From: a virus
Virus record (IMG/VR): IMGVR_UViG_3300045988_179664
Span: 22,072-86,071 of that record
Strand: one strand, 5' to 3'
DNA length: 64,000 bases
The notes below the pieces were generated by a model. It ran no database searches. It was not told where the DNA came from and saw only the letters and a list, made by a program, of their open reading frames with translations. The translations under genes and the position numbers were made by a program. Shown in pieces: positions 9,106 to 47,300 of the stretch; positions within the stretch are counted from its first letter, which is position 1, and every line of letters starts with the position of its first letter.

Positions 9106-9438
9106 TTAATCTCTGTGATAGCGCTGCATCATACCGAACATAGCCGCAAGCGCCAATGCAAGGTAGATGTAAGTGTATCCCTTTTCAATCATGTTCAGAA
9201 TCACGATGGTAAAGCTCGAAAAAGCACCACAATAAAAAGCGGCACCAAGTTTATCGACCAAAAACATCAACATCTGGGCAACGACTGCCGCAGGAACAAG
9301 AAGCTTGAGACGCTTGGCCTCAATGATTCCGTCCCAGTCAAGAACAGCAATGAAGCTGGCTCCCATGCAGATGACCCAAACAAAAGCGAAAATAAGGGTT
9401 GCTGTGTCAAAAAAGTTACTCATATCAGTTACCTCCAA
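9106..9438 (-). CDS. Small membrane protein of 110 aa with about three transmembrane segments and a charged C-terminus (RYHRD).
   Basis: Tandem paralogue of 9479-9808 (about 45 percent identity, same length, same C-terminal RYHR). Confidence 0.5.
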   Translation of the reverse strand: MEVTDMSNFFDTATLIFAFVWVICMGASFIAVLDWDGIIEAKRLKLLVPAAVVAQMLMFLVDKLGAAFYCGAFSSFTIVILNMIEKGYTYIYLALALAAMFGMMQRYHRD

Positions 9439-9478: not shown

Positions 9479-9808
9479 TTATCTGTGATAGCGCTTTGTC
9501 ATGCCAAACATAGCTGCAATCATAATCGCCAAATATGCGTACAAATACAAATTCTCAATCATTCCAAGAACTGAAATTGTAAGACTGGCGAACATACCGC
9601 AATACAGAACAGCACCAATTTTTTTGATGATGAACAGCGTGGCTTGCGCAATGATGGCGACAACGAGAAAAACTTTGATGTATTTAGCCTCAAATAAACC
9701 ATCCCAATCGATGGCAAGGAAGATACAAGCCCCCACAGCGAGAGCCCAAACCAAAGCAGCAACAGATGCAACAGCGTCAAAGAAGCTTAACATAGCGAAT
9801 ACCTCCAT
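9479..9808 (-). CDS. Small membrane protein of 109 aa, paralogue of 9106-9438.
   Basis: Same architecture. The flanking DNA (ATCTGTGATAGCGCT...) is also duplicated. Confidence 0.5.
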   Translation of the reverse strand: MEVFAMLSFFDAVASVAALVWALAVGACIFLAIDWDGLFEAKYIKVFLVVAIIAQATLFIIKKIGAVLYCGMFASLTISVLGMIENLYLYAYLAIMIAAMFGMTKRYHR

Positions 9809-9845: not shown

Positions 9846-9883
9846 CAGCAAAAAGCCGCCAATGGGACAATCCACTGGCGGCT
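9846..9883 (-). terminator. Hairpin (AGCCGCCA...TGGCGGCT) plus T-run lying between promoter C and the 9808 start.
   Basis: 8-bp stem followed by TTTTTGCTGTTTAT on the minus strand. Confidence 0.4.
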
Positions 9884-9936
9884 CAGTTGCCGATTGCAAT
9901 AATACAGTTAAATCATTTGATTTATGTTATGTCTCA

Positions 9937-9972: not shown

Positions 9973-10944
9973 TCAGAAGACTTCGTCAAGTTTTGCACAT
10001 ACAATAAAACGAGTATCGTAATTATCACTGCCTGAACAGGTGGACAAAATCAAAACCTTATCATTCAATCCAACTTCTGTGGCGTACTGATTGTAAGAGT
10101 AAGCTTTCATACTTGCAATCTCTGTCAGGAAATACGAATCATCCGGATTCGCAATGGTATAACTTGGGTCAATAGGATAATCGGCAACAGCAAAGATTTT
10201 CCATCGTGTCTGTCGTTCACCCAAAGTAAGATAAATATACCGATGTTCTTTTGCAAAGTTGACATCGCGGAAGTATTTCAAAACACTGAATTTCTTGTGC
10301 ATACTGTTTCCGTTGCTATGTCCAAAAATAACAGTTACTCTGTACATATCGTCAACATTGCTGACATTCCATTCGGAGGGAACAAAATAAGCGCCCCAGA
10401 TACTTTCCCTATCGAACTCATTGTGAGTCAGGTAATAATCATCGTCTGTGGGATGCTGCAAAATGGGCTCATCTGTAACATCAACGCCGGGAACAGTTAA
10501 GTAACCAACGGTGTTCTTGGAATACGCTGGCTTTGGTGCCGGTTCCGGTTCTGAATCACTCTCACTTGAATTAGAAGACGGGATAAGAATCGAGGGGGTA
10601 GAAACGGGTTCTTCTACATCGTCGGAGATGTCTCCTGTTTCATATGCAGGAATATGATAGTAATCATACGCCTTCCATCCAATATAGCCAATCATGGCAA
10701 TAAGAACGATGCAAATTACGACCAACAAAACTGTCCAGATGGAAAATCGCCGTTTCTCTTTGCCCTCTGACACGTCCATCGCATCCATCGATTCATTGTC
10801 ATCCTCGTCATGGCTTGCCTTTTGATGAGGGAAGTTTTCACCAGTTCCATCATCCTCATCATTTGGAATGTAATTGTACGCACCAAGTTCCTGCTCGAAA
10901 TGTTCTTCTTTGGGCAGTGGTGGAATAATAGGTGTTTTTGCCAT
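9973..10944 (-). CDS. srtB: Sortase, class B-like transpeptidase with an N-terminal membrane anchor.
   Basis: The catalytic His (IFGHSNG), Cys in a TLxTC-type motif (LILSTCSG) and Arg (TRFIV) are present. One TM segment FSIWTVLLVVICIVLIAMIGYIGW follows an acidic N-terminal tail. Confidence 0.75.
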   Translation of the reverse strand: MAKTPIIPPLPKEEHFEQELGAYNYIPNDEDDGTGENFPHQKASHDEDDNESMDAMDVSEGKEKRRFSIWTVLLVVICIVLIAMIGYIGWKAYDYYHIPAYETGDISDDVEEPVSTPSILIPSSNSSESDSEPEPAPKPAYSKNTVGYLTVPGVDVTDEPILQHPTDDDYYLTHNEFDRESIWGAYFVPSEWNVSNVDDMYRVTVIFGHSNGNSMHKKFSVLKYFRDVNFAKEHRYIYLTLGERQTRWKIFAVADYPIDPSYTIANPDDSYFLTEIASMKAYSYNQYATEVGLNDKVLILSTCSGSDNYDTRFIVCAKLDEVF

Positions 10945-10955
10945 AATACATCACC

Positions 10956-12119
10956 TTACTCAGCTGCGGCAGACCGCTCGTACACATCAATGCAGTAGTT
11001 GCCCATAATCTTGTTATACATACACTCCTGTGCCAAAGGACCTGCTCCATAGGTATCAACGGCGTTATCGTAGTTACTGCCAATATAAGCTTTCACTTCA
11101 TCGACAGACGGTTTATAGTCCTGTTCCTCTGCCAGATACTGCGCAACAAGGCTCAGTAAAACATTTTCTTCCGTCTGACTACGAAGACTTTCTGAATACT
11201 CCTCCGAGGTCTTATAATTGCTGTATGTCTGAACGAATGTCTCCAAGTCCATATTGTAGGCAGTTGCTTCGTTTTCGACATACTTCAAGTTGGTTTCAAG
11301 ACTCAGGTTGACAAGGTCTGTCGTATCCTTTTTGAGTTTTACATTGTCAATGAAATACTGTTCAATCTCATTCTGAATCTTATTCATCCGAAGATTCTCT
11401 TCAACATATTCACGAAGCAGAGCTACTGTAGTTACAGCAGTGCCGTCTTGCAGCTTGTAGCCACTCATGATACCGGCAACATCAGCATCTGTCATGCTAT
11501 ATTGAGAAATTTTATTAAGCGTTACATGGAAAACAGCTTCCTTGTTGGCGAGTTCGATAGTCTGCTCGCCTGTAGTTCTATCTGTTGTACTGCTATATCC
11601 ATCAGGGAATGTTACCGTAACATCAAACGAATCCCCCGTGTTATGCCCGACGATTTGCTCTTCAAATCCGTCAATAAAGGTATTGGAACCGAGTTCCAAA
11701 TCGTAGTCTTCTGTTGTTCCACCGGTAAAAGCAACACCATCAACCGTACCCTCATAGTCAATGTTCACAACATCGCCTTCCTGTGCGGCGCGGTCTGTTA
11801 CCTCTGTTGTCAGCTTGTAATTGGACTGAAAATAATCCAACTCACTTTGAATCTCCTCGTCCGTAACAGCGTATACATCTTTGCTGACCGTATATTCCTT
11901 ATAATTCTTGGGCATCTTTATGTATTTGGACGCGGTCACATCACGAAAATACCCGTCATCATCAAGACCGAGGTCATACTCAACAGCGGAAGCCGTTTCA
12001 GAGGTAGCTGTTTCCGCAGTTTCAGATGTACTTGCATCGGTCACGTTTTTGCCACACGCGGTCAATGCAATACATGCAGCACTGATGACCGCCAGAATCA
12101 TTTTTGCGTTTTTCTTCAT
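10956..12119 (-). CDS. Lipoprotein resembling trigger factor without its ribosome-binding N-domain. It contains an FKBP-type peptidyl-prolyl cis-trans isomerase domain.
   Basis: Lipobox LTAC after MKKNAKMILAVISAACIA. The segment GDVVNIDYEGTVDGVAFTGGTTEDYDLELGSNTFIDGFEEQIVGHNTGDSFDVTVTFPDGY aligns closely with the trigger-factor PPIase domain. AAGGAG RBS before the ATG at 12119. The ORF-track start at 12434 is an upstream artefact. Confidence 0.7.
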   Translation of the reverse strand: MKKNAKMILAVISAACIALTACGKNVTDASTSETAETATSETASAVEYDLGLDDDGYFRDVTASKYIKMPKNYKEYTVSKDVYAVTDEEIQSELDYFQSNYKLTTEVTDRAAQEGDVVNIDYEGTVDGVAFTGGTTEDYDLELGSNTFIDGFEEQIVGHNTGDSFDVTVTFPDGYSSTTDRTTGEQTIELANKEAVFHVTLNKISQYSMTDADVAGIMSGYKLQDGTAVTTVALLREYVEENLRMNKIQNEIEQYFIDNVKLKKDTTDLVNLSLETNLKYVENEATAYNMDLETFVQTYSNYKTSEEYSESLRSQTEENVLLSLVAQYLAEEQDYKPSVDEVKAYIGSNYDNAVDTYGAGPLAQECMYNKIMGNYCIDVYERSAAAE

Positions 12120-12130
12120 GAAAATCTCCT

Positions 12131-12170
12131 TTATAAAAAGACCCCGGCAGACAGGTTGCCTACCGGGGCA
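12131..12170 (-). terminator. Terminator-like hairpin (CCCCGG...CCGGGG followed by a T-run) between the SecE-like gene and the PPIase gene.
   Basis: GC stem followed by TCTTTTTAT on the minus strand. Confidence 0.4.
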
Positions 12171-12175
12171 GTATT

Positions 12176-12427
12176 TTAAACGAACAGGAACGGGACATGA
12201 AGCAGCAGGGCATAAGCTGCATCCATGATACCAATGATAACGGCAGACACAGCGCTCACAGCAAGAACTGCTCCGGTTCGACGGAACGTATTGCGCATAC
12301 TCGGCCAAGTCACATTTTTGGGTGCAACCAGATTGTGCAGTTTCTTGGGCGTGCTCTTGATGAAAGAAGGAATTGCCTTCACGAAATTCACGATAGCCAT
12401 TCCAATCTTTTTCAGTTTCTTTTTCAT
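12176..12427 (-). CDS. secE: SecE-like small membrane protein of 84 aa.
   Basis: KNVTWPSMRNTFRRTGAVLAVSAVSAVIIGIMD matches the SecE signature (K-V-x-W-P ... single C-terminal TM). AGGAGG RBS before the ATG at 12427. Confidence 0.55.
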   Translation of the reverse strand: MKKKLKKIGMAIVNFVKAIPSFIKSTPKKLHNLVAPKNVTWPSMRNTFRRTGAVLAVSAVSAVIIGIMDAAYALLLHVPFLFV

Positions 12428-12678
12428 GCCGCACCTCCTACTCCGGTTACTACGAACATGATGATTGCGATAACAAGCAGAATAGCTGTACATACAGCAA
12501 CCAGTTTATTTGCGGACGTTTTCGTGCTGTCTTTAGCACTCGAGCGCATTGTATCACTGATTCCGGTGATAACACTAAGACTGTTCTTGTCAGCCTTATC
12601 CATGGAAAGCGTAACCGCACAAACCAGAACAGAAACCAGCAGAATCAAGATGCACAGAATGATTTCATAAATTGCCAT
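12424..12678 (-). CDS. SecG-like two-TM small membrane protein of 84 aa. The similarity is weak.
   Basis: Topology is TM, then loop SMDKADKNSLSVITGISD, then TM, like SecG (LLQxxKxxGLSGAxxGG). GGGAGGG RBS. Translationally coupled to the SecE-like gene (ATGA overlap). Confidence 0.4.
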   Translation of the reverse strand: MAIYEIILCILILLVSVLVCAVTLSMDKADKNSLSVITGISDTMRSSAKDSTKTSANKLVAVCTAILLVIAIIMFVVTGVGGAA

Positions 12679-12693: not shown

Positions 12694-14034
12694 TCAATTC
12701 AAGAAACCTTTGTGATGGCGAACCACCAAATGGCTGTTAAGAGAATCGATAACTTCAAGCGTAACACCTGTGACAATCAACAGACTGGTACCGCCAAAGT
12801 GCATATTCAGACCTGTAACCGCAGTTGCCAAGATAGGCACACATGCAATAACCGAAAGAACAAATGCTCCCGAACCGGCGAGAGAATGGCAAGCATTGCG
12901 CAAATAATCACTGGTAGCTTTGCCTGCTCGAATACCGGGGATACTGCCGCCGTTCTTGCGCAGGTTGTTTGCCATTTCGATGGGGTCGAATGTGATGTCG
13001 ATGTAGAATAAGTTGAATGCGAAAATCAGGGCTACATACGCAACATCATAAATCCAATTCCGTGAATTCCAAGATGCCAGCGCCATATACAGGCTGGGGT
13101 GCTTGTTGTAATCGAGGAACATCGTCACGAGAGACGGCATACTGCAAATGGTGGACGAGAAAATAATAGGCATAACACCCGACATAATCAGTTTGATGGG
13201 GATATAACTGGACTGACCAGCGGATGCTTTGTTCCCTACATTTTTACCGGCATACTGAACAGGAACGCGGCGCTCTGCATCGCTTGCGAAAACGACATAG
13301 AAGGTGGCCGCCAAAACAAAGAGGATGACGCCGGGAATCATCAGATAATACCACCATCCATTTTCTTTGCCCATTGCAATAGAGTTCTGGAACAACGAGA
13401 TGACAGCATCCCATCTGGAAATGATACCGGTAAAGATGATAAGGGAAATACCGTTGCCAATACCTTTTTCGTCAATCAGCCATCCAAGCCAGATGACGAT
13501 TTGAGAACCAGCAGTCAGAATGGCAATAACAGTAATGGCTTCCACGACCTGCGAAATGCCGGAAGTGTATTTCATCGCACCGTAGTTCTTCATAATAAAG
13601 AAGTACCCGATAGCTGTTACAGCCGCCAAACCACAACCAACATACTGCGTGATTTTATTGATTTGCTTCTGCCCGCCGATGTCCTTGCTGATTTCTTCCA
13701 GTTTCGGAATCGCAACAGTCAAAAGCTGGATGATGATGCTTGCGTTGATGTATGCAGATACGCCAATCGCAAATACCGCACACTGAGAAAGTGCGCCACC
13801 GGAAACCAGATTGTAATAATCCAGTACAGAGGTGCTTCCGAACATAGTCTGAAGCGCAGCGGTGTTTACGAACGGAATCGTAATACCGCAACCCAGACGA
13901 TAAATCAGAAGACAAAGGATGGTGAAGAGAATCTTGTTGCGAACATCATCCACCATCAGCTTCTGGAAGATGGTGCTGTTCGAATAAGACTTTTTGAGTT
14001 TCGGCTTTTTCGCCGGATTTTTAATGTTGTCCAA
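12694..14034 (-). CDS. secY: Preprotein translocase SecY of canonical type, located outside the ribosomal-protein (spc) operon.
   Basis: DDVRNKILFTILCLLIYRLG, GVSAYINASIIIQLL and the C-terminal GGTSLLIVTGVTLEVIDSLNSHLVVRHHKGFLN align along their full length with Bacillus SecY. TTG start at 14034 with GGAAGGAG 6 nt upstream. There is a 27-aa N-terminal extension. Confidence 0.85.
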   Translation of the reverse strand: MDNIKNPAKKPKLKKSYSNSTIFQKLMVDDVRNKILFTILCLLIYRLGCGITIPFVNTAALQTMFGSTSVLDYYNLVSGGALSQCAVFAIGVSAYINASIIIQLLTVAIPKLEEISKDIGGQKQINKITQYVGCGLAAVTAIGYFFIMKNYGAMKYTSGISQVVEAITVIAILTAGSQIVIWLGWLIDEKGIGNGISLIIFTGIISRWDAVISLFQNSIAMGKENGWWYYLMIPGVILFVLAATFYVVFASDAERRVPVQYAGKNVGNKASAGQSSYIPIKLIMSGVMPIIFSSTICSMPSLVTMFLDYNKHPSLYMALASWNSRNWIYDVAYVALIFAFNLFYIDITFDPIEMANNLRKNGGSIPGIRAGKATSDYLRNACHSLAGSGAFVLSVIACVPILATAVTGLNMHFGGTSLLIVTGVTLEVIDSLNSHLVVRHHKGFLN

Positions 14035-14058: not shown

Positions 14059-14334
14059 TTATCGAGCAAAGAAAGCAACGATGATTCGCATCAGAAAGGC
14101 TACAACGGCCAACTTCGTTGCAAGCCACATGAACCAATCGAGTTTGTCGATACCTTCGTCGAATACATTTGTTGCGGCAGCATCTTTTTTGTTACTGTCG
14201 CAATCCCCATCAACATGGTTTTTCTTGATTTTGTTGCGATTAAGCACAAACAAAGTTCGAAACAAAGCCCATGTTGCAATACAGAATCCGTATACGATTA
14301 GAAGCTCGATACAGAAACTGTGCAAAGACGACAT
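14059..14334 (-). CDS. Small membrane protein of 91 aa with two transmembrane segments.
   Basis: ORF immediately upstream of secY. Hydrophobic N- and C-terminal helices. Confidence 0.4.
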   Translation of the reverse strand: MSSLHSFCIELLIVYGFCIATWALFRTLFVLNRNKIKKNHVDGDCDSNKKDAAATNVFDEGIDKLDWFMWLATKLAVVAFLMRIIVAFFAR

Positions 14335-15011
14335 TAAGCGGATGCGCCGTTGGCGTCAGGAGTCGTATTGGAGGCGGTCTCGGCAACGGCCTCTACCGGA
14401 GTTTCCGTGACAGTCTCTGCGGGAGAAGTGATATCCCCGGTGATTGCGGGGACGTTGGCATCTTCTGCGACCGACTCATTGATGGGCGCTTCAATAACCG
14501 CATCCTTGACTCCATCAGCAGTCACTTTCTTTGCTGCGATTTTTGCGAAGTGCTCATTGCGCTTTTCACGGCAAGCCTTGCAGCGGGTGGGGAGCTTGTA
14601 GTCATGGACGACATACCAGTACAGCTCGCGATTGGTAAACTGCAGCTTCTGACCGCAATCTGCGCAGGCGTCTTCCAGACCGATGTTATCCAGCCCACGC
14701 TTCACGAAGTCGCGATGAATCTTGCGGCATTCCGGGCAGCGGTTCGGCAGAGAATAACCGTGGCTCTCGAAGAAATCGCGGTCACGATTGGTGATGTCGA
14801 ATTCATGACCGCAGTCAACGCACTTGCGGGTCTCAAACACCTCATTGCTCTTTGCATCAGCTTCCTTGCGAGCTTCATCCTCTGCGCGGCGCTTTGCGAA
14901 ATCGTCACGCATACGACACTCGCGGCACAGCACCTCGCTCTCATTGGCGGTGCTGAACGGCTTGTTGCACTTCTCACAGGTCTTGCGGAATTTCTTTGCT
15001 GCATCTTTCAT
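14334..15011 (-). CDS. Zinc-ribbon repeat protein of 225 aa with three CxxC...RCxxCR units and an acidic C-terminal tail.
   Basis: CEKCNKPF..CRECR, CVDCGHEF..LPNRCPECR and CADCGQKL..LPTRCKACR repeats. AAAGGAG RBS. Confidence 0.5.
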   Translation of the reverse strand: MKDAAKKFRKTCEKCNKPFSTANESEVLCRECRMRDDFAKRRAEDEARKEADAKSNEVFETRKCVDCGHEFDITNRDRDFFESHGYSLPNRCPECRKIHRDFVKRGLDNIGLEDACADCGQKLQFTNRELYWYVVHDYKLPTRCKACREKRNEHFAKIAAKKVTADGVKDAVIEAPINESVAEDANVPAITGDITSPAETVTETPVEAVAETASNTTPDANGASA

Positions 15012-15571: not shown

Positions 15572-15618
15572 AAATTTCTCCTTTGACTAAAAAGCAATGT
15601 TTCGCTTGGAATATTTAT

Positions 15619-15647
15619 ATTATACCACATAAATATAATGTGGTCAA
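15619..15647 (-). promoter_or_regulatory. Class-1 promoter with -35 TTGACC, 17-nt spacer and extended -10 TGTGG-TATAAT.
   Basis: The minus strand reads TTGACCacattatatttatgTGGTATAAT upstream of the 15571 start. Confidence 0.6.
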
Positions 15648-15667
15648 TACAAATTGCGAATAAAAAA

Positions 15668-15689
15668 ATGCCCTGCCAAAGCAGGGCAT
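15668..15689 (-). terminator. Rho-independent terminator (ATGCCCTGC-CAAA-GCAGGGCAT followed by T7).
   Basis: A perfect 9-bp stem and TTTTTTT on the minus strand. It probably terminated the 17751-17098 gene before the IS element inserted. Confidence 0.6.
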
Positions 15690-15864
15690 GTAAAATATCA
15701 GAAGTGTCTTATCAGATTGCGCCGTAAAACCCCTTGTTTTAGCTATGGGAATATAAGGCGCAGTGAAACTTAAGTTGTAATGTTTACAAATTGCACAAGT
15801 ATTGAATGGCGAGCTGTGATATAATAAATCAAAAAATTTCTCAACGGCAAAAGGATAAAATGGG

Positions 15865-16965
15865 ATGACATTTCAAAAGGGTGTAAAATTTAGAATCTAC
15901 CCAAACCGGGAGCAGCGCAATCTGATTGACCGCACTCTCGGTTGCAGCAGACTCATTTACAATAAAGGTCTTGCCATGCGGGAGGACGCTTTCAAAGGTG
16001 GGGAAAAGTGCGGCTACAAGCAAACTTCTGCTATGCTGACAGCGCTCAAGCAGGATGTGAACTACGCGTTTCTCAAAGAGGTGGATTCCATTGCTTTGCA
16101 GCAAGCGCTGCGAAACCTTGATACCGGATACACAAACTTTTTTGAGCATAGGGCTGCACATCCAAAATTTAAGAATAAGAAAAGCTCTAAGCAGTCGTAT
16201 CATACGCTTAACATTGGTAACGGTATCCGTATTTCTAATAAGCGTATTCGCTTACCGAAAATTGGTTGGGTAAAAGTTCATCAGTCTATGGAGATTGGTG
16301 CAATTCACAACGCAACAGTAGTGCGTACAACCACCGGCAAATATTTTGTAGTTCTTAATGTGGAATATGACCCTCAGCCTATGCCAAACAACGGTTGTGT
16401 AGTAGGCATTGATGTTGGACTCAAAGAATTCTATTCCGATAGTAACGGTACTGTGGTTAATAACCCCAAATACTTGGAGAAGAAAGCCAAAAAACTTGCT
16501 CGCGAACAACGGCGTTTGGCTCGCAAACAGAAAGGCTCACATAATCGTGAAAAGCAGCGCATAAGAGTCGCTGCCACCCACGAAAAGATAGCTAATCAAC
16601 GAAACGATTTCCTTCAAAAACAGTCTACTATGCTGGTGCGTGAAAATCAAACTATCTGCATCGAAGACCTTAATGTAAAGGGAATGCTTCGCAATCATAA
16701 ACTTGCAAGAGCTATTTCCAGTGTTTCGTGGTCGTCTTTCTTTAACATGCTGGAGTACAAAGCCTATTGGTTCGGTTGTACAGTAATTCGTGTACCTACA
16801 TTCTATCCAAGCAGCCAAACATGCAGTTGCTGCGGTCATAAGAATGTGGCTGTTAAGAATCTCAGCATCCGAAAATGGGAATGCCCGTCTTGTCACACGG
16901 TTCATGACAGAGACAAGAACGCTGCCATTAACATTTTGCGTAAAGGGCTTGAAAAGTCCGCTTAA
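15865..16965 (+). CDS. tnpB: TnpB (IS605 OrfB family RNA-guided endonuclease).
   Basis: N-terminal FRIYPNREQ, RuvC-I GIDVGLK, zinc finger CSCCGH...CPSCH and RuvC-III DRDKNAAINILRKG. 366 aa. Confidence 0.85.
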   Translation: MTFQKGVKFRIYPNREQRNLIDRTLGCSRLIYNKGLAMREDAFKGGEKCGYKQTSAMLTALKQDVNYAFLKEVDSIALQQALRNLDTGYTNFFEHRAAHPKFKNKKSSKQSYHTLNIGNGIRISNKRIRLPKIGWVKVHQSMEIGAIHNATVVRTTTGKYFVVLNVEYDPQPMPNNGCVVGIDVGLKEFYSDSNGTVVNNPKYLEKKAKKLAREQRRLARKQKGSHNREKQRIRVAATHEKIANQRNDFLQKQSTMLVRENQTICIEDLNVKGMLRNHKLARAISSVSWSSFFNMLEYKAYWFGCTVIRVPTFYPSSQTCSCCGHKNVAVKNLSIRKWECPSCHTVHDRDKNAAINILRKGLEKSA

Positions 16966-17100
16966 ACTAATACATACCGTACCGTGGGACACACGGGAAG
17001 TAACGCCTGTCTGACATCGTGTAAGACGCAACAGCTTCGGTTGCTGTGCAGTGGTGGTTGATGCAGGAATCCCCCTGCTTTAGCCGTGGGGAGAATGTCA
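16850..17100 (+). ncRNA. Putative omega-RNA (right-end element RNA) of TnpB. The extent is a guess.
   Basis: By analogy with TnpB systems, the guide-scaffold RNA overlaps the 3-prime end of tnpB and the right end. Hairpins such as CCGTGGGACACACGGG lie downstream of the stop. Confidence 0.3.
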
Positions 17101-24208: not shown

Positions 24209-25168
24209 TTAAATTTCACCGCTCATGGTCAGCTTTGCACGAGCCATGATTTCATATCCTTTTGCATTTGCGGTTACATCCGTCAAGAAGAAAAGGTTCT
24301 TGGTGTCAATGGCTCGCTCGATGCTTTCGCGCATCATAGCAGAACCACCGCCCATAAAGATGAAATAGGATGTTTTGAAGTCGTCCTTGATTTTTTCGGA
24401 AATCGTACGAATCAATGCTGTTGCATAATTGTCTGCGGTTTCCTTGGCAATTTTCACGGCGTTTTCATCGACCAGCATGTTGTTGTTCCCTGCAAGGATT
24501 GCCTCAGCCATGTAGTCATCGACCGACAAGGAACAATGGACACGCAGCTCGCTCTCGACAGTGCTCAGGAGTTCAATGACTCCACGGTCATAGCTTTCGC
24601 AGAAAGAAAGGTCCGGAGCATAAGTGTTGCCACGACCAGAGAAACGAATCACATCCGTGGTATACCCGCCGATGTCTACGACATAAGAACGGGGATAGCG
24701 CTTGATTTCCTTCTGAATCTCGCTTGCTGCCGTAATAGAAAAGCCCTGAGGATAGACAAAGACATGCTTGACAGTAATCTCAAACGGGATATCTTTGTAC
24801 ATGAAATTGATGAGTTTCCCGCTTTTGCCGAAATACTCATCATACTTCGCTTTCAGGGACATATGCTGCGGGGGCAAGCCCATCGCGAGGCATACATCGT
24901 ATTTGTAGAATTTCTGATTGGGATACTTCTTTATAAGGTTCTTTGCTACGGCAATCAGCGTCAGCAAAAAGTAAGTATCATCCTTCGTCTTATCCTGCTG
25001 ATAAGGCGTGCGGCTGTCATTGAGAGAATAATACTTCCCCATATAGCACATCGTCTCTCCCTTGATAGCCGGTTCAGTCGTACCGTGACGAACAAGACCA
25101 GTGGGAAACGGCTCACAGCCAGGCGTCTTCATTGCCTTGTTTCCGGTATCTACTCCAATAATCTCCAT
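24209..25168 (-). CDS. ParM/StbA-family actin-like ATPase, a type II partition protein.
   Basis: Phosphate-1 IGVDTGN, phosphate-2 VVDIGGYTTDV and adenosine motif FIFMGGGSAMM. GGAGGA RBS before the ATG at 25168 (MEIIGVDTGNK). The ORF-track N-terminal extension is an artefact. Confidence 0.75.
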   Translation of the reverse strand: MEIIGVDTGNKAMKTPGCEPFPTGLVRHGTTEPAIKGETMCYMGKYYSLNDSRTPYQQDKTKDDTYFLLTLIAVAKNLIKKYPNQKFYKYDVCLAMGLPPQHMSLKAKYDEYFGKSGKLINFMYKDIPFEITVKHVFVYPQGFSITAASEIQKEIKRYPRSYVVDIGGYTTDVIRFSGRGNTYAPDLSFCESYDRGVIELLSTVESELRVHCSLSVDDYMAEAILAGNNNMLVDENAVKIAKETADNYATALIRTISEKIKDDFKTSYFIFMGGGSAMMRESIERAIDTKNLFFLTDVTANAKGYEIMARAKLTMSGEI

Positions 25169-25406
25169 AAAAAATCCTCCGAACGAGTCGCAATATAGTT
25201 GAAAGTACGAATTTTGGGATACTCTGCGTGATAAAATATAAGTGTCTACCAGATAACAATGGGACTCACTGACTGATGTATAGCGGTTGTTAAAACGGAA
25301 AGAACAACTAATATACAACTGCCTGTTGTTATCATGATACCACACATGCAGTTGTCCAGCAACGAACTTTTGTTCGCATAGACAACAAAAAAGAAAGGAG
25401 TTATTT

Positions 25407-25637
25407 ATGCCATCCACCTTTGATACCATGGTAGGAAAGCGAATCAAAAAGCAACGAATGGAAATCAATTACAGCCAAGAACAGTTGGCGGCAAGCACGA
25501 ATTGTTCCTATCGCTGCATCCAAAAATGGGAGTCAGGAAAGACGATGCCGCGAGCGCAGATGCTATGTAATTTAGCAAAAGCCTTACATGTTTCGTCTGA
25601 CTGGCTGCTGGGTATTTCCAATGACAGGAACGGTTAA
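25407..25637 (+). CDS. XRE/Cro-like HTH regulator of 76 aa.
   Basis: RIKKQRMEINYSQEQLAASTNCSYRCIQKWESGKTMP is a classic HTH_3. AAAGGAG RBS. Confidence 0.7.
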   Translation: MPSTFDTMVGKRIKKQRMEINYSQEQLAASTNCSYRCIQKWESGKTMPRAQMLCNLAKALHVSSDWLLGISNDRNG

Positions 25638-35155: not shown

Positions 35156-35812
35156 TTAGCCTACTGCGGTTTCGTCAGCAGGGGCCTCGGACTCAGCAGC
35201 AGAATCAGCCTCGGCAGTATCCTCAGAGGAAGCCTCCTCGGTGGACTCGGCGGCATCGCCATCAGTCTCAGCGCTTTCAGCCTCGCTGTCGGCAGCTTCA
35301 CCATCAACGGCTTCGGATTCGGCAGCGTTCTCAGCCTCGGATGCAGCCGCTTCCTCCGCAGACACAGAGGTAGACACCAGCAGATTGCCCTCGGCATCAG
35401 CCTGACCACAGTTGTACAGATATGCGAACGCGGCGCTCAGATTGTCGAACTTGGACAGGTCGGGAACTTCAACGGTAGAACCATCCTCGGCAGTCTTGGT
35501 ACCGTCGAAATGAACGCTGCCGTCCTCGTCATAGCGAACGGTGACAGTGTAGCCATCGCTTGCCAGAGCCTCGGTCATATAAGCGGCATAAGCATTCATG
35601 GTGGTCTTCATCTGGTCCTCACTCAGAGAAACACCATCGGGCATCTCAGTCAGCTTGCTGTTATCCAGAACCTCAACTGCGGACTCACTGGTCGCACTGC
35701 TTGCACTGGTAGCATCATCCTTCTTGCCACAACCAACAAATGCAGTGCAGGCCATTGCCATAGCAAGACACAGCGCAGCACCCTTCTTTACAGAACTCTT
35801 GTTAACCTTCTG
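35156..35812 (-). CDS. Lipoprotein of about 219 aa with a highly acidic Ala/Glu/Ser-rich C-terminus.
   Basis: Lipobox FVGC after MQKVNKSSVKKGAALCLAMAMACTA. AAAGGAGAAG RBS before the ATG at 35812. Confidence 0.55.
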   Translation of the reverse strand, partial: QKVNKSSVKKGAALCLAMAMACTAFVGCGKKDDATSASSATSESAVEVLDNSKLTEMPDGVSLSEDQMKTTMNAYAAYMTEALASDGYTVTVRYDEDGSVHFDGTKTAEDGSTVEVPDLSKFDNLSAAFAYLYNCGQADAEGNLLVSTSVSAEEAAASEAENAAESEAVDGEAADSEAESAETDGDAAESTEEASSEDTAEADSAAESEAPADETAVG

Positions 35813-35883
35813 CATGAGTAACTTCTCCTTTTTCATGTGTGTTTGTTTGATGTGCATAAACAAGCTTCATGCACTATGCTTAT

Positions 35884-35991: not shown

Positions 35992-38900
35992 TTACTGCTT
36001 CTTTTCCTCGGTTTTATCCTCAGTCTTTTCAGCAGCTTTTTCTTCGCTATCGCCCTTCTTCTTCTTAACGATGACAAATGCGCCAACGCCAATCAGAGCA
36101 ACAACAACGATAACAGGAACGATGATGTCTGCGCCAAAACCAACGCCAGTCTTGTAGTTAACTACAACAGGTGCCGGAGTGGGAGCGGGTTCATTCTTGA
36201 CTACAGGAGTCGGAGTCGGTCTGCTTTCTTCCGGAGGATTCTCCAGCTTAACACTTGCTACCCGAACATCACCGTAGTTGCCTGCCTTATCGACTGTACG
36301 GGTCACAATGTAACCAGTCCAATCGGGGCTCAGCTTGAAGGTAACGTAACCGTTGTCCTTATCAATGCTTGTGACATCGACAGTCTCGAACTTGGTTTCG
36401 TCGAAGGTGTAATCGCCCTTAGCACTCTTGGCAATAGCAGAACCATTGACCTTGTAATACTGAATCTTAGCGACACCGGAGTTGTACTCGCCATCCAGAG
36501 CGGAAATAGCAGGAACGGAATCCTTGACCTTTACAACAGGCACGAAGTCGGGGTCTTCGGTATCGTCCTTATCACCGTTTTCGTCGGGAGTAGCAACGAC
36601 ATCGTTACCGTTTTCATCACCGGTCTCGTCGCCGGTTGTGAAGAGAGCGGGCTTACCATGAGCAATACGAAGCGTAGTGGCTTCGGTCTTGTCATCGGTT
36701 GTTTCGGCCTTCTCGGACTCGCTGGGAACTTTCTCCTCGGTACCGGATTCGGTTTCATCCTTCTTGTCGGAATCTTCCTTCTTATCGGTATCGTCGGTAT
36801 CGTCCTTCTTGTCGTCTTCCTTCTCAGGTGCCTTGCCGGTCTCTTCACCAGTAATGAACACATTGATGGTGCTCTCGAACTTGACGAACTTCTCGTTCAG
36901 CAAGTCGGTCTTATTGGTGGAATCAACCTTATCGGCAGCGAAAGCAGAAGCAACGACAGGAGCTTCGGTATCAACAGATGTGGTGATAGTTCCCATCTCG
37001 GTAATGGCACCAGTCTTCAGGTCAATCAGGTAATAGGTAGAAGCAACCTTCTCACTATTAGCGGAAATGACCATCTTCTCGGCCCACTCAGCATCGGTCA
37101 GGGAATCGCTGGTTCCGATTGCGTAGCCCTTAGGAGCGATAACTTCAACCTTAGAGTTGAAGTACAGGCCACTCAGGTCATCAGTCGTCTTCTTGGTAAC
37201 CTCAACAGGCTTACCGGTCTTTTCGTCAGCCACAGTACCAACGATAGTTGCGGGCTCTACATCGGCAAGATGCAGACGCTGAACTTCGAGGTCTCCGGTG
37301 GTAGGCAGGTAATTGTAGTTGTCGTAAGCGCCGCCAACATACTTGAAAGCGTCCTTCGTCAAGCCAACATTACCGAAGATACCATCGATGCTGGAAGCAA
37401 CAATGAGTTCGAAGGAAGGCAGCTTAACGGTTTCAGCAGTCTCGTCGAAAGCGTAACCACTGGTCTTGATTTCGGGAATCTCCGTCTTAGTGCCATACAG
37501 CTTGACGACGGGGTTCGGGTCGAGAGTAACCGTCAGGTCTTTGCGAGCGATAACGAACTGACCATCGGCTTCGTTCTTATCGGCATCGACGACATTGATT
37601 GTTACTGCGTAATTCTGCTCAACAGCAGCATCGTAATCAGAGGTAACGGTGTAGGTGTAAGTACCAGCGTTCTTGACATTCTCAGTCTTGAACTGGCTGT
37701 CGCTCTCCACGCCGTCATCGCCGCTGGCGATGTCAGGAGTCAGAGTCGCCTTTGCATCAGCAGTCAAGGGAGCAGTCTGTGCATTGTCGGTGGTCTTGTC
37801 GTTCTCGAAAGGAGTATAAACAAGTGCCATCTTCAGGCCCAGAGAATCAGGTTTGACAGCTGCACCGTGTGTACCGTCGCCATTGGTGGCAACAGCATTT
37901 ACGGTGAAGTCGGGGTTAGTGGTATCGCCATAGACGATATCCTTGGGCTCGGTGACAGTGACTTCGACCAGACGTTCGCCAATGGTATAAACGCCATTAA
38001 CAATCGTAATCAGGTAATCGTCATTGTCGTAAGAACCGACCATGTCGTATGCACCGTAATTCTTGACAGATTCGGGCACGCTCTCCGCAACCAGAGACGC
38101 AGCACCATCAGCAGACTTCATGGAAATCTTTTCAGCAACCGCGTTCTCAACATCCTTCTGAGTGATGCTGATAATAGCTTTCAGGTCATCGCCATTTACG
38201 ATGGTCTTCTTATCGGCATCGCCAGTATAGGTAAGAGTATTGCTCAGTTCAGCCATTTCATTGCCGTAGACAGAACCAACAGTGCCGATGGTCCAAGTCA
38301 GAGGACGCTGAGTGACCGTGTAAGTGCCGTTCATAGCAGTTACCAGATAATCCTGATAAGAAGCCTGACCGACACGGTGAGCCAGACCGGAGAAGGAAGG
38401 AACGATGTCGTAGCCTCCGACATGGCTTGCAGAAGTGACGAGGCACAGGTTCGTGCCTTCCAGAATATCACCATTGACCAGAGCTGCCTTGGCAGTGTCA
38501 CCAGTGTATTCCAGAACGTTCACGGTGCCGTAATCAGACCAATCTTCAACAGCAACATCGTCGCCATAGATAGAAGTCTGGGGTTTAGCGGTGACAGTGA
38601 TGGGACGCTTGTCGATAACAAAATCAACGGGAGCGTAAACAAAGGTGTAGTTGTTTGCTGCGGCATTCTCAACATTTGCAGGAACGACCTTGCCGGTACC
38701 AGCGTGAGAAGCTACCGTTGCGGGAGCTCCCTCAGCATCGGTGAAGTTGAAGGTCAGGTTTGCAATGCTCAGGACACCAGCATCATCAGGAGTAGTGTTG
38801 CCCTTGACGGGTTTCACAACGAATCCATCGAAAATCAGGTCATCGCCGGAGAGAACAGGGTTCTCATCGCCGTAAATCTTGCTCTGGGGAGCCAGAGTAA

Positions 38901-41900
38901 CATTCAGCGTAGCAGGAGTGATTTCAAAGGTGTTGTTTACGCGGGTGATGTTGAAGTTGGCATCATCGCCCTCGATAATCATCGGGTGCTTGCCGACATC
39001 TTCACCAGCATCGGTGCCAGCGTCAGGACGAACAACCTTCAGGTTTGCAAGGTCGCCTGCATCCTCGCTCACATAGTAAGCGCCGTCACCAGTTGCAGTC
39101 CAAGTCAGTTCGGGGTCAGCCTCGCCGTAGACCTTCTTCTGGCCTTCGTCAACAACCACGATTACATCGCGCTTATCGACATGCAGAGAACCATCAACAA
39201 AGACGATGGGGTCATAGTTCTTTGCGCCCTTGTTTTCCAGACCGCTCATGGTGATGACATAATCGCCAGCAGCAGGACGAGCAGGAATCTCGGACAGAGA
39301 ACCGTCAGCATTCTTGATGTTGTAGACAACCGAGCCAGTGAATGCGGAAGCAACGGTGTCATTGTTCTTCAAGCCAGTAACGGTGTAGCTGAACGTGGGA
39401 ACGGTGCCGCCATAAATCATGGAGTAACCGCCAGCCACAGTAAAGGTGACCTTAACGGGCTTGATGGTCAGAGTAGCAACTTCCATAGCTTCGGGCTCGG
39501 TGGTGGAAGAACCAACATCGACGGAAGTGCCGGAGCCAGTCACGATGGTGATGGCGTAGTTGCCGTACTTGTTGTACAGAGTGGAGCTGATGGGATATTC
39601 ACCGACATCCTCACCGGCTTTGCGAGTAACAGAGCCGCTCAGAGCACCAGTAGTCAGTTCCAGCGTATTCTTCTTCAGACCATCGTTGGAAATGTTGCCG
39701 GAAATCTCGCTGTAAGAGAATGCGGGGTCTGCATCGCCGTAATCCTTCTCGTAGTTGGAGAAAGTCAGGGTGATGGGACGAGGAGTGATGGTGATGGTAG
39801 AATCAATCACCGTCAGGTCGTAGTTGGCAGGCTGTGCGTAGATAGCTTTCAGAGCATAAGTGCCAACGCTTGCGGAAGCAGAAGTTGCACCGGAAGTCAG
39901 GGTAATGCCCTTAAGAATCTTTTCGGCTTCTGCTGCCTGAACATCAGTAGTAGTCAGCAGACCAGTGCCGCCCTTGATGTAATCCTTCACGTTCATAGAA
40001 GTGAGGGTCTCACCATAGGTCTTTTCGGTTTCAAGCAGGTTGATAACGGCAGTACGCTTATTGATGGTGAAACGAACATCATTGGTGAAGCTGATACGAT
40101 AGTTCTTTGCCATCGTCTGCTCATAGATGTTACCGCTGTAAATCGGATAAGTGCCAGCGTTCTCGCCTGCTTCACGGCTCAGACGAGCCTGTGCGAAGTC
40201 AGCCTTGGGTTCTGCGAAGCTGGTGGTATTGTAGTCGAAGATGACATAGGTATCGTTGACTGCAAAGCTGGGGTCAGTCTCGCCGTAAGTCTTGGACAGG
40301 CCATAGCGAGGAGTGATGGTCAGGGGCATCTGATGAACAATCAGCATGTTCTTACCATCGGGCTCAGACAGCTTAACGCTGTTTGCGGGCTGGTTATCCA
40401 GACGGAAGGTCAGGTTGTAAGAACCTGCATCGTACAGACCAGAAGCGTTCGCAGTAGCCTCAACGGCGATACGAACAACACCCAGAGAAACATCCTTGCC
40501 GTCCATCTTGATATTGACGGTTTCGCCATCGTGGTAAATCTGAGTGCCATCAGAGGTATTCACGTTGACGGAAACTTCCTTGGCGATGGTGTCGGGCTTC
40601 TTCTCACCGTAAGTAGTCTGCAGGGCGTTGAAGGTGACAGAGACATCAGCCTCGGTGACTTGGAACGTAGCCTGCGGAGCAATCGTTACGATGTAATTGG
40701 GGTTCTCATCATAGGAGATGGTAGCCTCATAGTTGCCAACAACCGTGGTGGGGTCTTCCCACTTGGTCAGGTCGATGTGGATGTTCAGCGGGCTGCCCTG
40801 CGGGTCAACCACATTGATAGCCTGAGAACCGGTCTCGTCATACAGCGCATAGCTGGGGGTGTTCTTACCGGCAACGCCGTACTTGCGGACGCTGTTGGTA
40901 GTACCCTTGATGGTGACAGGCAGTGCATTGATAGTCAGCGTACCGCTTGTACCATCGCTGTAAGTGCCGGTGTAAACGATGTTGTAGTTGGGGTTGGTGT
41001 AACCGGAAACAACAATAGGATAGGTACCGACACCAGTCAGCTTGCCAACGGTATTGTCAACGCCATACTTGATGGTGACAGTGCCACCCAGAGAAGCGAC
41101 GGTATCGTGGATGCCGATTTCATCGTTGCTTGCGAAGTTCTTGTATTCCAGTGCGCCGGTAATGTCGGCATCGCTGGGATTCTCGGAACCATACAGACGT
41201 TCACGGTTCGGAACGGTGATAGTCAGAGTACGCTTGGTGATAGTGTACTTATCGGGAGCATTGAAGGTGATATCGTAGTTCTTGGCGATTTCAGCAGTCT
41301 GGAACTGTGCATCGCTGTAAGCGTAAGAACCAACAGTCTCGCCGACCTCACGGGTCACAACGCAGCCAGCAAAGTCGGAGCCAACACGGCCACCCTTGCC
41401 ATTGACGGGGTCAAGAGTAAAGGCAACGCCGCCCTTGGCATCACTGTCGCCGTAAACCTTCGTCTGACCACCCATCACATTGATGGCGATAGGACGCTTG
41501 GTGACGGTCAGCTTGCTGTTGACAAAACGAACCAGATAGTTGTCGTAACGGTCGTAGTTCTTGCCATCGGCATTGGGGTCCCAGTCAGAAGACCAACGCT
41601 CCTGAGAAGCACCCTGCACAGATGCGCTGACGGTGTATTCGCCAACATTGGCAGTTGTAGGAGTGCCGCTGTTGCCAGCCGCATCTACCATAGTAAAGCC
41701 AAGCTTGTCCTCGGTCAAACCGATGCTTGCCTGTGTATCGTTCAGTTTGAAACCTTCGATGGATTTAATCTTGCCAGAACGAGCAGCACCATACATTGCG
41801 GACAGGTCATCGAGAGTGACAGTCAGCATTGCAGGATGGATGATGTACTTGCTGTTGATGACTTTGACGTCATAGTAAGCAGTGCATGCAGGGGGAACTT

Positions 41901-44372: not shown

Positions 44373-47300
44373 TTATTCAGCGGAATCATCCTTATGGTTA
44401 TCTTTGTTGTCGTTTTCGTCCTTCTTGCGCTTGTGGTTTACTACCACCAGAGCAGCGACGCCAATGCCAACCATTGCTACCAGACCAACAATGCTCTGTG
44501 CAAATCCGATACCCGTCTTCTTGTTGCTCGTGAAGATAGAGAAGAGGGAGAAGGGTTTGCCGTCTACCTTGAAGATATCGAGCCAGCCAATCGGCGGGGG
44601 CTTGGGCTTCTCAGTAGGAACAGGGGTCGGAGTAGGCTTCGGGTTGTCAGGAGTCGGAGTCGGTTTAGGCTCGTCAGGCGTTGTGGGAGTAGAGGGTTTC
44701 ACAACAGGGACTTTCACCTCGTTGGAAGGTTTCTCTACATCTTCATCAATCGGCTTGGACGGGTCCTTACCATGACCCGGATTCTCGGGGTCTTCGGGAT
44801 TCTGACCCGGAGCCTTAGCGACAGCCACGTTAATGACATCGTGTCCGGCATCCGCGTCAACGGCAACATAAGAATAGGTCAGAGTGAAGGATTCGCCAAC
44901 AGGGATACGAACAATAGTGAACGTTGTCGTTGCGCTATTGTAAGTATATCCATCACCGTTCTGGGCTTCAATATGGCTTGCGCCGTCATTGTTGTCCTTT
45001 ACGGTTACATTGACAAGGTCTACTTCACCGGTATTGGTTACTACCACACGATAATTGATGGTTTCACCGACATTGACTTTCGTCTTGTCAGCACTCTTCA
45101 CAATCGTGAGGCTCTTTTCGAGCGGAACATCCGTTTCCGTACCGGAACCCGGAACTTCCACATCGACCTTGTTGGACGGAATATCCGTATCAGGGTCAAT
45201 CGGTTTCGTCGGGTCTTTACCCTGTCCGGGATTCTCCGGGTCTTCGGGGTTCGTACCGGGAACATGAATCGTCGCTACGTTTTCAAGAATGTGCGTAGTC
45301 ACATCGGCGATACCGACAGTATAAGCGTAGTGGACAACCACATCGCCGCCAGCAGGAATCGTGTCGATGGTGAATACACCATTCTCATAGTGATAACCAG
45401 CGCCATCCACTGCGAAAATGCTTCCGGAGAAGTTATTCTCATCAGTCAGAGCAGCATTCTGAATATCGTGGTCTTTGCCATTGTGTACCGTTACGGTATA
45501 GGTGACAGTCTCACCCGGCTTTGCGACAGTCTTGTTTGCAGACTTCCAGATGGTGACAACGCCATCATCAGGCTTCTTCACATCGACTGTATTGGACGGG
45601 ATATTATACTGCTCGCCATCGTGCGTGTACTTAATGGTTGCGGTATTTTCCATAACGCTCTCATCGGTCGTCTCTACCGTATAGGTATAAACGATATCAA
45701 GAGCCTCACCGACATCCAGATAACCGATAGTCCAAGTGCCATCTCCGTTATAGGTATAGCGGTTAGAACTCTCAGCCGTAACATCACCCGCAAAGTTGTT
45801 ATGGTCTGCGACAGTGATATCGTTTACGGTTTCGTCTGTCGTATTCTTCACCGTAATGGTGTAGGTCACAACATCCGTTACCTTGGCAATATACTTATCG
45901 GCATCCTTTTCAACATCGATAGGCGGTGTCGGGTCTTTCACAACAGCAGCGTTCAGGACCTTAGGAGCATCAGCGGTAACTACCACATAGGTAAAGTTAA
46001 GCGTTACGCTCTCGCCAGCCTTTACAGTGCTGATGGTATAGGAGTTGTCGCCGTTATCCGCAACGCCATCCATGGGCACAAAGTTGAGCGTTCCGTTGCC
46101 ATCGAAGAAGTCTTCGACCACAACATTTTCCGCATCAGCCTTGCCCTTATTGGCGACAGTAACCGTATAGTTGAGCGTATCGCCAACCTTGGCCTCTGCC
46201 TTATCAACGGACTTGGTGATTTCGATTACAGGAATCTCTGTTTCGGTTTCAGAGCCAGGAACTTCCACATCAACCTTGTTGGACGGAATCTCCGTATCGG
46301 GGTCAATGGGTTTCTCGGGGTCTTTGCCGTGACCCGGATTATTCGGGTCTTCGGGATTCGTGCCGGGAACATGGATTGTTGCAATGTTTTCGAGAATCTG
46401 CGTGGGCACATCAGCAATTTCAACCGTATAGGTGTAGTGGATAACCACATCACCGCCTGCGGGAATCTTATTGATTGTGAATTCGCCGTTCTCGAAGGTG
46501 TAATCTGCACCGTCAACGCTTACGATTTCACCAGCAAAGTTGTTGGTATCTGTCAGACGAGCGTTTTCGATGTCGTGATTCTTTCCGTTATGAACCGTGA
46601 CGGTATAGGTTACAACCTCACCCGGCTCAGCCTTTGTCTTATCTGCAGCCTTGCGGATGGTAACAACACCATCATCGGGCTTCTCGACATCGACGGGGTT
46701 AGAGGGGATATTGTAATCTGTGCCATCCTTGCTGTAAGTCACATTTGCAATGTTTTCGATGACGGTGGCATCCTCAGCCTGCATCGTATAGGTGTAGGTG
46801 ATATAGATGGTCTCGCCAGCGGCAATAGTCGGGATGGTCCACGTCTTATTGCCATTGTAAGTGTACTTGTCAGCGTTTTCGGCCTTGATTTCGCCCTTGA
46901 AGTTGTTAGTATCGGTGACAGTTACATTGTCAACAGGCTCAGAAGTGGTGTTCTTCACGGAAATCGTGTAGGTTACAACCTCATCTACCTTTGCAATGTG
47001 CTTGTCGGCTTCCTTCTCAACGTCAACAGGCGGTGTCGGGTCTTTGATTACTGCGGCGTTCAGTACGAGAGGTTCGTCTCCTTCAACTACAACATAGCTG
47101 AAACGAAGCTTTACGCTCTCCCCTGCTTTGACCGTAGAAATAGTGTAGGTGTTGTCTCCGTTATCTGTCACGCCATCCATGGCCTTGAAGTTCAGCGTTC
47201 CGTTTCCGTCAAAGAAATCCTTAATCAGGATATTCTCAGCATCCGCGTTACCGCCGTTCTTGACAGTGACGGTGTAGTTTAGCGTATCACCAATCTTGGC

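Follow-up and report, generated by a model that had tools for sequence, protein, structure and literature searches.

The gene considered here lies on the minus strand, at positions 10956-12119, of a 64,000-nucleotide (nt) stretch of DNA (hereafter the window) that represents positions 22,072 to 86,071 of the IMG/VR record IMGVR_UViG_3300045988_179664, probably part of a "Hodor" conjugative megaplasmid, and it encodes a 387-amino-acid (aa) trigger factor (TF)-like peptidyl-prolyl isomerase (PPIase) and chaperone, predicted to be tethered to the membrane. Judged from its sequence, this protein is a derivative of trigger factor in which the ribosome-binding head has been swapped for a putative lipoprotein export signal and a flexible tether. 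Textbooks describe trigger factor as a cytosolic chaperone bound to the ribosome, and the newness is in its predicted re-deployment as an extracellular lipoprotein, which is a member of a large, unnamed family and not a one-off. The reading that we favor, at a probability of about 0.6, is that of a post-translocational foldase that helps two giant proteins of the plasmid to fold outside the cell. The module to which the gene belongs and a chaperone role for its product have already been proposed in the preprint describing the Hodor plasmids (bioRxiv 10.64898/2026.02.21.707213, 22 February 2026; PMC12934698), and it is the predicted extracytoplasmic, N-domain-less nature of the protein that is new. 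No paper with an exported trigger factor in its title or abstract was found in the literature library searched, itself incomplete.

As to the assignment to trigger factor, among the NCBIfam models the protein matches TIGR00115 (tig) with an E value of 5.6e-50, residues 71-349 aligning to positions 108-371 of the 410 of the profile, while the next-best families appear at approximately 1e-3 (BamJ, 1.4e-3; the peptidylprolyl isomerase model NF008008, 1.7e-3). A profile of 37 diverse homologues compared with the PDB sequences retrieves trigger factors only, at 1e-34 to 1e-15, followed by SlyD at approximately 1e-3. The AlphaFold model, based on the family alignment, has a mean predicted local distance difference test (pLDDT) score of 86 and a predicted template modeling (pTM) score of 0.74, with residues 1-44 below 50 and the remainder mostly above 90, and the first eight Foldseek matches to this model in PDB are trigger factors, over 300-342 aligned columns. 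The global template modeling scores are low, as expected for a flexible, extended chaperone. Based on these profile and fold comparisons, the protein is assigned to trigger factor and not to another FKBP family, the latter being the alternative that an earlier, sequence-only reading of this DNA had left to be decided by profile searches and by structure comparison.

The linker, the TF-type FKBP domain and the helical C-terminal domain recognized in the sequence-only reading are all recovered. Residues 46-108 (11796-11984) align with approximately residues 95-160 of the Escherichia coli TF and comprise a vestige of the N-domain (residues 46-70) and the TF linker helix, which packs against the body of the C-domain; pLDDT is above 90 in this segment. 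Residues 109-201 (11517-11795) make up an FKBP-type PPIase domain of the TF type (Pfam FKBP_C, E value 1.3e-16), and residues 202-387 (10959-11516) the helical TF C-domain, the arms-and-body chaperone module, recognized through Pfam Trigger_C and backed by the fold searches, with the helical arms and body in place; the stop codon follows at 10956-10958. In the pairwise alignment, E. coli TF residues F168, F177, F185, I195, F198, Y221, and F233, which we take from the TF literature to line the PPIase pocket, correspond to Y122, F131, Y139, I149, F152, Y175, and F197, respectively, and F131, F152, F171, Y175, and F197 are invariant across the family, as represented by the same 37 homologues. Relative to the E. 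coli protein, the FKBP domain has an extra insertion of approximately 10 residues (the SSTTDRTTGEQTIE region).

The ribosome-binding N-domain, earlier described as lacking, is indeed gone for the most part, with one amendment. The ribosome-binding motif GFRxGxxP is found neither in the 387-aa protein nor in any of the 108 full-length family members. In the E. coli TF alignment, however, residues 46-70 (EYDLGLDDDGYF...KMP) match the final strands of the N-domain (TF residues approximately 95-118), and thus approximately the first 90 TF residues alone have been replaced. This vestige features the conserved motif GLDxxGY...Y..P, with G56, A63, Y66, and P70 invariant.

What takes the place of the missing residues is a predicted export signal. 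The ATG at 12119 is taken as the true start of the gene because a ribosome-binding site read from the sequence, AAGGAG (12126-12131, minus strand), is positioned 6 nt 5' of it, and because the starts of the homologues coincide with it, the close homologues all beginning with MKKN... or MRK... at the equivalent methionine. A longer, 492-aa open reading frame (ORF) from GTG 12434 was rejected, as it overlaps secE and has no ribosome-binding site, and as the homologues start at the ATG. Residues 1-22 (12054-12119; MKKNAKMILAVISAACIALTA followed by C) represent a predicted lipoprotein signal peptide with the lipobox L-T-A-C and a predicted lipidated Cys22. This segment (MKKNAKMILAVISAACIALTAC) matches two regular expressions modeled on published lipoprotein rules, one of them PS51257-like (after PROSITE) and the other the Gram-positive G+LPP pattern, and it possesses a basic n-region, a hydrophobic h-region (mean Kyte-Doolittle hydropathy of 2.48 for residues 7-21), a match to [LVI][ASTVI][GAS]C, and a cysteine within approximately the first 35 residues. 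In the 37 diverse homologues, the conservation of Cys22 reaches at least 90%, and the PS51257-like rule is passed by 117 of the 120 homologues retrieved; this conservation argues that the lipobox, already noticed in the sequence-only reading, is not a chance match. By these rules, the lack of a signal peptide, the second outcome that would have spoken against that reading, was not observed. Cys22 is followed by a 23-residue segment (residues 23-45; 11985-12053; GKNVTDASTSETAETATSETASA) that is rich in Ser, Thr, Glu, and Ala and disordered, as judged from pLDDT and composition, and Gram-positive lipoproteins are usually tethered by segments of this kind. The two N-terminal features also sort apart: in 78 TF homologues from GTDB genomes, GFRxGxxP occurs in 42 and a lipobox in 23, and none have both. 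With the ribosome-docking part lost and a lipoprotein signal gained, the protein is predicted to be extracytoplasmic and ribosome-independent. In a Faecalibacterium-type sub-clade (P0086, P0088, P0096 and similar sequences), the lipobox is replaced by ...VIFAC/FFTLTRKK... (IFAC or IFAF, then TRKK), apparently an uncleaved signal anchor, and thus the family is predicted to be membrane-tethered via either of two modes, a lipobox or a signal anchor.

The genomic context, of a SecYEG set upstream and a sortase downstream, is also as first described. Read in the direction of transcription (minus strand for all), a 225-aa zinc protein and a 91-aa hypothetical protein come first, followed by SecY, the SecG-like protein, and SecE; next are a hairpin, the TF-lipoprotein, SrtB, and a second hairpin. 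SecY (446 aa; 12694-14034) is canonical, scoring 329.6 bits with TIGR00967 (cutoff 253.6) versus 145 bits with SecY2; the SecG-like small membrane protein (84 aa; 12424-12678) has weak, sub-cutoff matches to SecG and is called SecG in PMC12934698; and SecE (83 aa; 12176-12427) is recognized by Pfam SecE (4.1e-8) and by TIGR00964 (32.9 bits, above the cutoff of 27.55). Between secE and the TF gene, just ahead of the ribosome-binding site of the latter, there is a strong terminator-like hairpin with a T-run (12141-12169; a 13-bp stem, 8 GC). The promoter scan listed no sigma-70-like site on the minus strand between approximately 12120 and 13040, and the transcript carrying TF and srtB could originate from a leaky terminator or from an internal promoter. 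The class B sortase (323 aa; 9973-10944), with an N-terminal membrane anchor, comes 11 nt past the TF stop codon, and another terminator-like hairpin (9853-9884) marks the end of the TF-srtB unit. With TIGR03064, this sortase has an E value of 4.8e-22 and a score of 78.4 bits, not reaching the cutoff of 153.75; its PDB sequence matches are to SrtB in nine cases out of nine, with the His (VIFGHS), Cys (LILSTCSG), and Arg (TRFIVCAK) aligned, and it is classified, from these alignments, as a divergent class B member with an N-terminal extension of approximately 130 residues.

The presumed clients are encoded by two genes on the same strand. One giant surface protein, of approximately 2650 aa from ATG 43944 (35992-43944), has a signal peptide, MBG_2 repeats, and a C-terminal NYKTGVGF followed by a transmembrane segment and KKKK. 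The other (44373-64000), whose ORF runs off the edge of the window after more than 6540 aa, has DUF11, DUF7507, and MBG_2 repeats, NKKTGIGF, a transmembrane segment, and a basic tail. In both, N[YK]KTG[VI]GF is thus followed by a hydrophobic helix and a tail rich in Lys (35992-36150 and 44373-44530), and no other ORF of the window carries a sortase-type C-terminal signal. The motif differs from LPXTG, NPQTN, and (S/P)PXTG, and N-[YK]-K-T-G-[VI]-G-F is a candidate recognition sequence for the divergent SrtB. A 235-aa ORF (35156-35863, minus strand) that directly follows the gene for the smaller giant has a lipoprotein-like N-terminus (...CLAMAMAC-T or FVGC-G) and no Pfam match, and it probably belongs to the trio of downstream genes that the preprint describes as co-transcribed with the giant gene.

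These features agree with the description of the surface module (SecYGE, TF, SrtB, and the giants) of the Hodor conjugative megaplasmids, which are elements of 211-389 kb found in human gut metagenomes, with giants of 7309-7704 aa and approximately 2642 aa possessing cell-wall sorting signals (PMC12934698). In that description, TF is co-transcribed with srtB, and secY-secG-secE are co-transcribed as a separate set; the module, along with the giant proteins, is among the few gene sets common to both Hodor groups; and a "trigger factor" is listed in the module, where it is regarded as probably a chaperone of the giants (PMC12934698). This is the same gene, with a chaperone role, while the side of the membrane on which it would act, the missing N-domain, and the family outside the Hodors are not covered there, the words lipoprotein, lipobox, ribosome, PPIase, and FKBP not occurring in the main text of the preprint (PMC12934698).

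The element itself is probably a Hodor megaplasmid. A plasmid nature is indicated by a ParM/Alp7A-like actin gene (24209-25468), along with a flotillin/SPFH protein and a Dam methylase, all encoded in the window. The PHROGs scan of 10 window proteins returned a radical-SAM family and families of unknown function, with no phage hallmarks, and this, together with the ParM-like gene, leaves the viral label of the IMG/VR record unsupported by the window, in agreement with the preprint; the label is probably due to misclassification or to an embedded prophage. TF copies of 97% identity are present on two IMG/VR contigs of 240,696 and 345,980 bp (L088 and L089; UViG_3300029615_000411 and UViG_3300023499_000220), which represent the same element and are likewise catalogued as viral. 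No match to the 4.2-kb module was found by megablast among PLSDB plasmids and INPHARED phages, and no relative above 39% identity was found in a scan of the GTDB species representatives.

As to the linkage of the genes, the order SecY-SecG-SecE-TF-SrtB is kept in relatives whose TF proteins are 98%, 73%, and 58% identical to the one in the window. These are represented, respectively, by a Logan contig (L001), by a locus (L093) in which a 2627-aa MBG_2 protein ends approximately 7 kb upstream of the TF gene, and by a contig of 295,666 bp (L002). One further example of a sortase pairing is a 48%-identical TF-lipoprotein on another mobile element (L090), with a serine recombinase near and a small Pfam-type sortase approximately 460 bp downstream; SecYEG is not among the genes called at this locus. 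TF-lipoproteins of 39% identity (L004-L006) are found on a Tn7-like element (TnsB/TniB/TniQ), beside an N6/N4 methylase, and the genes called up to 10 kb away include no sortase.

The wider family is chromosomal. The homologue search produced 5050 matches, of which the best 120 are all tethered forms of approximately 330-520 aa. GTDB genomes with such genes include Faecalibacterium, Gemmiger, Acutalibacteraceae, Lachnospiraceae, Johnsonella, Tyzzerella, and others. One example is the chromosomal Faecalibacterium prausnitzii member, named "trigger factor" by NCBI, whose neighbors are malic enzyme/fumarase genes on one side and a restriction-modification system on the other. At 34 chromosomal loci, the 124 flanking genes were classed by Pfam, and this census features PrmA, RF-1/PCRF, NlpC/P60-PcsB, RpoB, and regulators; at one locus (L017), a sortase-B-like ORF is located approximately 9 kb from the family member. 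As to whether homologues sit beside sortase and giant adhesin genes, the Hodor relatives keep SrtB and, in L093, a giant approximately 7 kb away, and the chromosomal members reside in housekeeping contexts without sortases. Searching a representative library with residues 40-110 produced 52 clusters at E values of up to 1e-3, mostly of 360-400 aa and with the segment at the same position, a count that is a lower bound on family size. One match, P0124, a tail-fibre-like repeat sequence, was judged by eye to be a chance repeat similarity and was set aside. In P0048, a Hodor-type N-terminal half is joined to a Faecalibacterium-type C-terminal half, and in P0050 (521 aa) a part of the PPIase domain and most of the C-domain are repeated; these two are either recombinants or chimeric metagenome assemblies.

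In the neighbor-joining tree (60 sequences, 322 columns, 100 bootstraps), the Hodor clade is recovered with a bootstrap value of 97, the Hodor clade with the L090-type copy with 98, and this group with the Faecalibacterium/Gemmiger clade with 83, while the separation of all tethered forms from the canonical Bacillota TFs receives only 68; a single origin of the tethered forms is suggested. In the simplest reading, the Clostridia have an old family of chromosomal foldases; mobile elements captured one branch of it, which in the Hodors came to be linked to a sortase and to a translocon of its own. Copies on the chromosomes of Faecalibacterium, Gemmiger, and Lachnospiraceae have the appearance of foldases with a general housekeeping role, and the family looks like a PrsA-style foldase co-opted by a plasmid.

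With the bacterial TF (Tig; E. coli TF, PDB 1W26/2MLX), homology extends over the linker, the FKBP domain, the C-domain, and the last strands of the N-domain, the differences being the loss of approximately the first 90 residues, the lipoprotein signal and tether found instead, the FKBP insertion, and a score below the TIGR00115 cutoff. PrsA of Bacillus, Staphylococcus, and Enterococcus is likewise a lipoprotein in which a TF/SurA-like chaperone module flanks a PPIase. However, the PPIase of PrsA is a parvulin, and that of the window protein is an FKBP derived directly from trigger factor: FKBP_C is its sole PPIase match in the Pfam scan, with no rotamase/parvulin match, and no sequence homology to PrsA is detectable. 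PrsA dimerizes. The accessory Sec systems (SecA2/SecY2/Asp) of the serine-rich repeat adhesins are, as generally known, another case of a second translocon set linked to very large wall-anchored adhesins, and we know of no extracytoplasmic TF-like foldase in them. An accessory SecA2/SecY2 nature of the window translocon was rejected, given the canonical SecY and its company of SecE and SecG; no match to SecA or Asp families was found among the part of the window ORFs that was scanned.

An extracytoplasmic FKBP lipoprotein is known from Streptomyces lividans, Sli-FKBP (the SCO1639 orthologue), a foldase that assists the folding of secreted proteins (PMC6833217). It is Tat (twin-arginine translocation)-dependent and FkpA-like (PMC6833217), whereas the signal peptide of the TF-lipoprotein has no twin-arginine motif; trigger factor is not mentioned in that paper, and no TF-type C-domain is reported for Sli-FKBP. 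Its orthologue in S. chrysomallus, FKBP-33, has two FK506-binding domains, according to a title cited in PMC6833217. A precedent for a unit of translocation and folding is found in Mycoplasma pneumoniae, where the PrsA-like lipoproteins Mpn444/436/489, TF/SurA-like chaperones with PPIase coupled to the Sec translocon, form a dome on SecYEG-SecDF (bioRxiv 10.1101/2025.04.25.650208; 10.1101/2024.09.05.611430). These proteins are much larger, internally duplicated, and of the parvulin type, and cryo-electron tomography showed them associated with the translocon, versus gene adjacency alone in the case considered here.

How could the protein function? We propose that it would be exported through Sec, followed by diacylglycerol modification of Cys22 and cleavage by signal peptidase II. 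The mature TF-lipoprotein would then be held by the outer leaflet in the space between membrane and wall, like PrsA in Bacillus, and there it would bind unfolded chains as they leave SecYEG, presumably that of the plasmid, hold them in its cradle, and speed prolyl isomerization. The plasmid SecY-SecG-SecE would provide the channel, the TF-lipoprotein the foldase, and SrtB the wall attachment of the folded products. The clients would most likely be the two giants (approximately 2650 aa and more than 6500 aa) with their N[YK]KTG signals and their Ig (immunoglobulin)-like repeats of thousands of residues, which, once folded, would be handed over to the co-expressed SrtB.

This reading fits the conserved gene order, the sorting signals of the giants, and the chaperone role proposed in the preprint (PMC12934698), and in this respect the original suggestion of a foldase for very large repeat proteins stands. 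A number of observations weigh against it. The TIGR00115 score of 170.4 bits is just below the equivalog cutoff of 180.2, and the Pfam Trigger_C score (residues 242-345) of 21.8 bits is just below the cutoff of 22.7. Lipidation of Cys22, the surface location, and PPIase activity are all properties that we infer from sequence. The giant genes are upstream and 24-52 kb away from the TF gene in the window, and the hairpin at 12141-12169 parts secE from the TF gene. In the census of the 34 chromosomal loci, no sortase is among the 25 commonest families, and sequence searches with the window SrtB, SecY, and SecE find adjacent copies in the Hodor loci only. As the chromosomal relatives are not found beside sortases, SecYEG, or giants, the linkage to giant adhesins is specific to the plasmid and not a property of the family, and specificity for the giants as clients is at most presumed. 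The main rival, considerably less probable in our view, is a general foldase of the PrsA type that has no clients reserved for it; the plasmid would carry its copy along with SecYEG only to raise or standardize the secretion capacity of the Bacillota host in which it finds itself, and the giants would be just two of many clients. This rival is in agreement with a family that is widespread, chromosomal, and found in unrelated housekeeping neighborhoods, with the homologues that reside on other mobile elements with no sortase called nearby (L004-L006), with the uncoupling of the TF gene from secYGE by a terminator-like hairpin, and with the promiscuity for which both trigger factor and PrsA are generally known. 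It does not account as well for a slot right before srtB, with the 11-nt gap, that is fixed in the divergent Hodor relatives examined, down to 58% TF identity, for a second, independent pairing of a TF-lipoprotein with a sortase on another element (L090), or for the module and the giants being among the few sets shared by both Hodor groups (PMC12934698).

The tightest genetic coupling of the TF gene is to srtB and not to the giant genes, the Hodors are conjugative (PMC12934698), and srtB is followed by two small paralogous membrane proteins and by other unknown membrane proteins, all of which would suit a factor needed for maturation of the sortase, or one that serves conjugation or other surface machinery (type IV secretion system components, non-giant mating adhesins). 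We consider this unlikely, as a sortase is a small single-domain enzyme and as the giants alone in the window carry a sortase-type C-terminal signal. To our knowledge, there is no precedent for a sortase needing a dedicated PPIase. Finally, the name "trigger factor" given by NCBI to the relatives would fit a cytoplasmic paralogue that keeps the giant pre-proteins export-competent ahead of the plasmid SecYEG, with an N-terminus that is not a working signal. This is very improbable, in view of the complete n-h-c lipoprotein signal and the invariant cysteine in more than 100 homologues, the deletion of the ribosome-binding motif, the mutual exclusion of lipobox and GFRxGxxP among the relatives, and the disordered Ser/Thr-rich tether that follows the cysteine.

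Of the other genes near the module, the 225-aa protein upstream of SecY (14334-15011, minus strand) is a treble-clef zinc-ribbon repeat protein (zf_Tbcl, 5.1e-10), and it is retained just upstream of SecY in all the Hodor-type loci examined (L001, L002, L093). Just downstream of srtB, two tandem paralogous genes (9106-9438 and 9479-9808, minus strand) encode hydrophobic, membrane-like proteins of approximately 110 aa, both terminating with ...AAMFGM(M/T)(Q/K)RYHR. An ORF for an IS605-type TnpB (15865-16965, plus strand), positioned within 15572-17097, matches OrfB_IS605 (1.4e-29), the Cas12f1-like TNB, and HTH_OrfB; the approximately 1.5-kb gap that holds it is just 137 bp in L001, and it looks like a recent insertion within the secretion module.

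A more far-reaching proposal, put forward here only tentatively, is that SecYEG, the tethered TF foldase, and SrtB may form one physical, portable complex with which a megaplasmid of broad host range displays adhesins of 2,600-7,700 aa in any Bacillota host, independent of the secretion and folding factors of that host, with the TF-lipoprotein docking on the extracellular face of SecYEG, as does the M. pneumoniae dome. More generally, trigger factor would have been re-deployed once, early in the Clostridia, as an extracellular substitute for PrsA, representing a second independent origin of a Gram-positive foldase lipoprotein.

In conclusion, if the favored reading of a post-translocational foldase is true, a TF-derived FKBP would represent a third kind of lipoprotein foldase on the outside of Gram-positive cells, beside PrsA (parvulin) and the cyclophilin/FkpA-like types, in a family that occurs in abundant gut genera such as Faecalibacterium. 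The database name "trigger factor," as given to the F. prausnitzii member, for example, would then imply the wrong compartment. The mechanism envisioned for the Hodors would also change, as the chaperone would act after translocation and not before it, and these plasmids would possess a self-sufficient pathway for exporting, folding, and anchoring some of the largest bacterial surface proteins, which would be relevant to their spread across host families.

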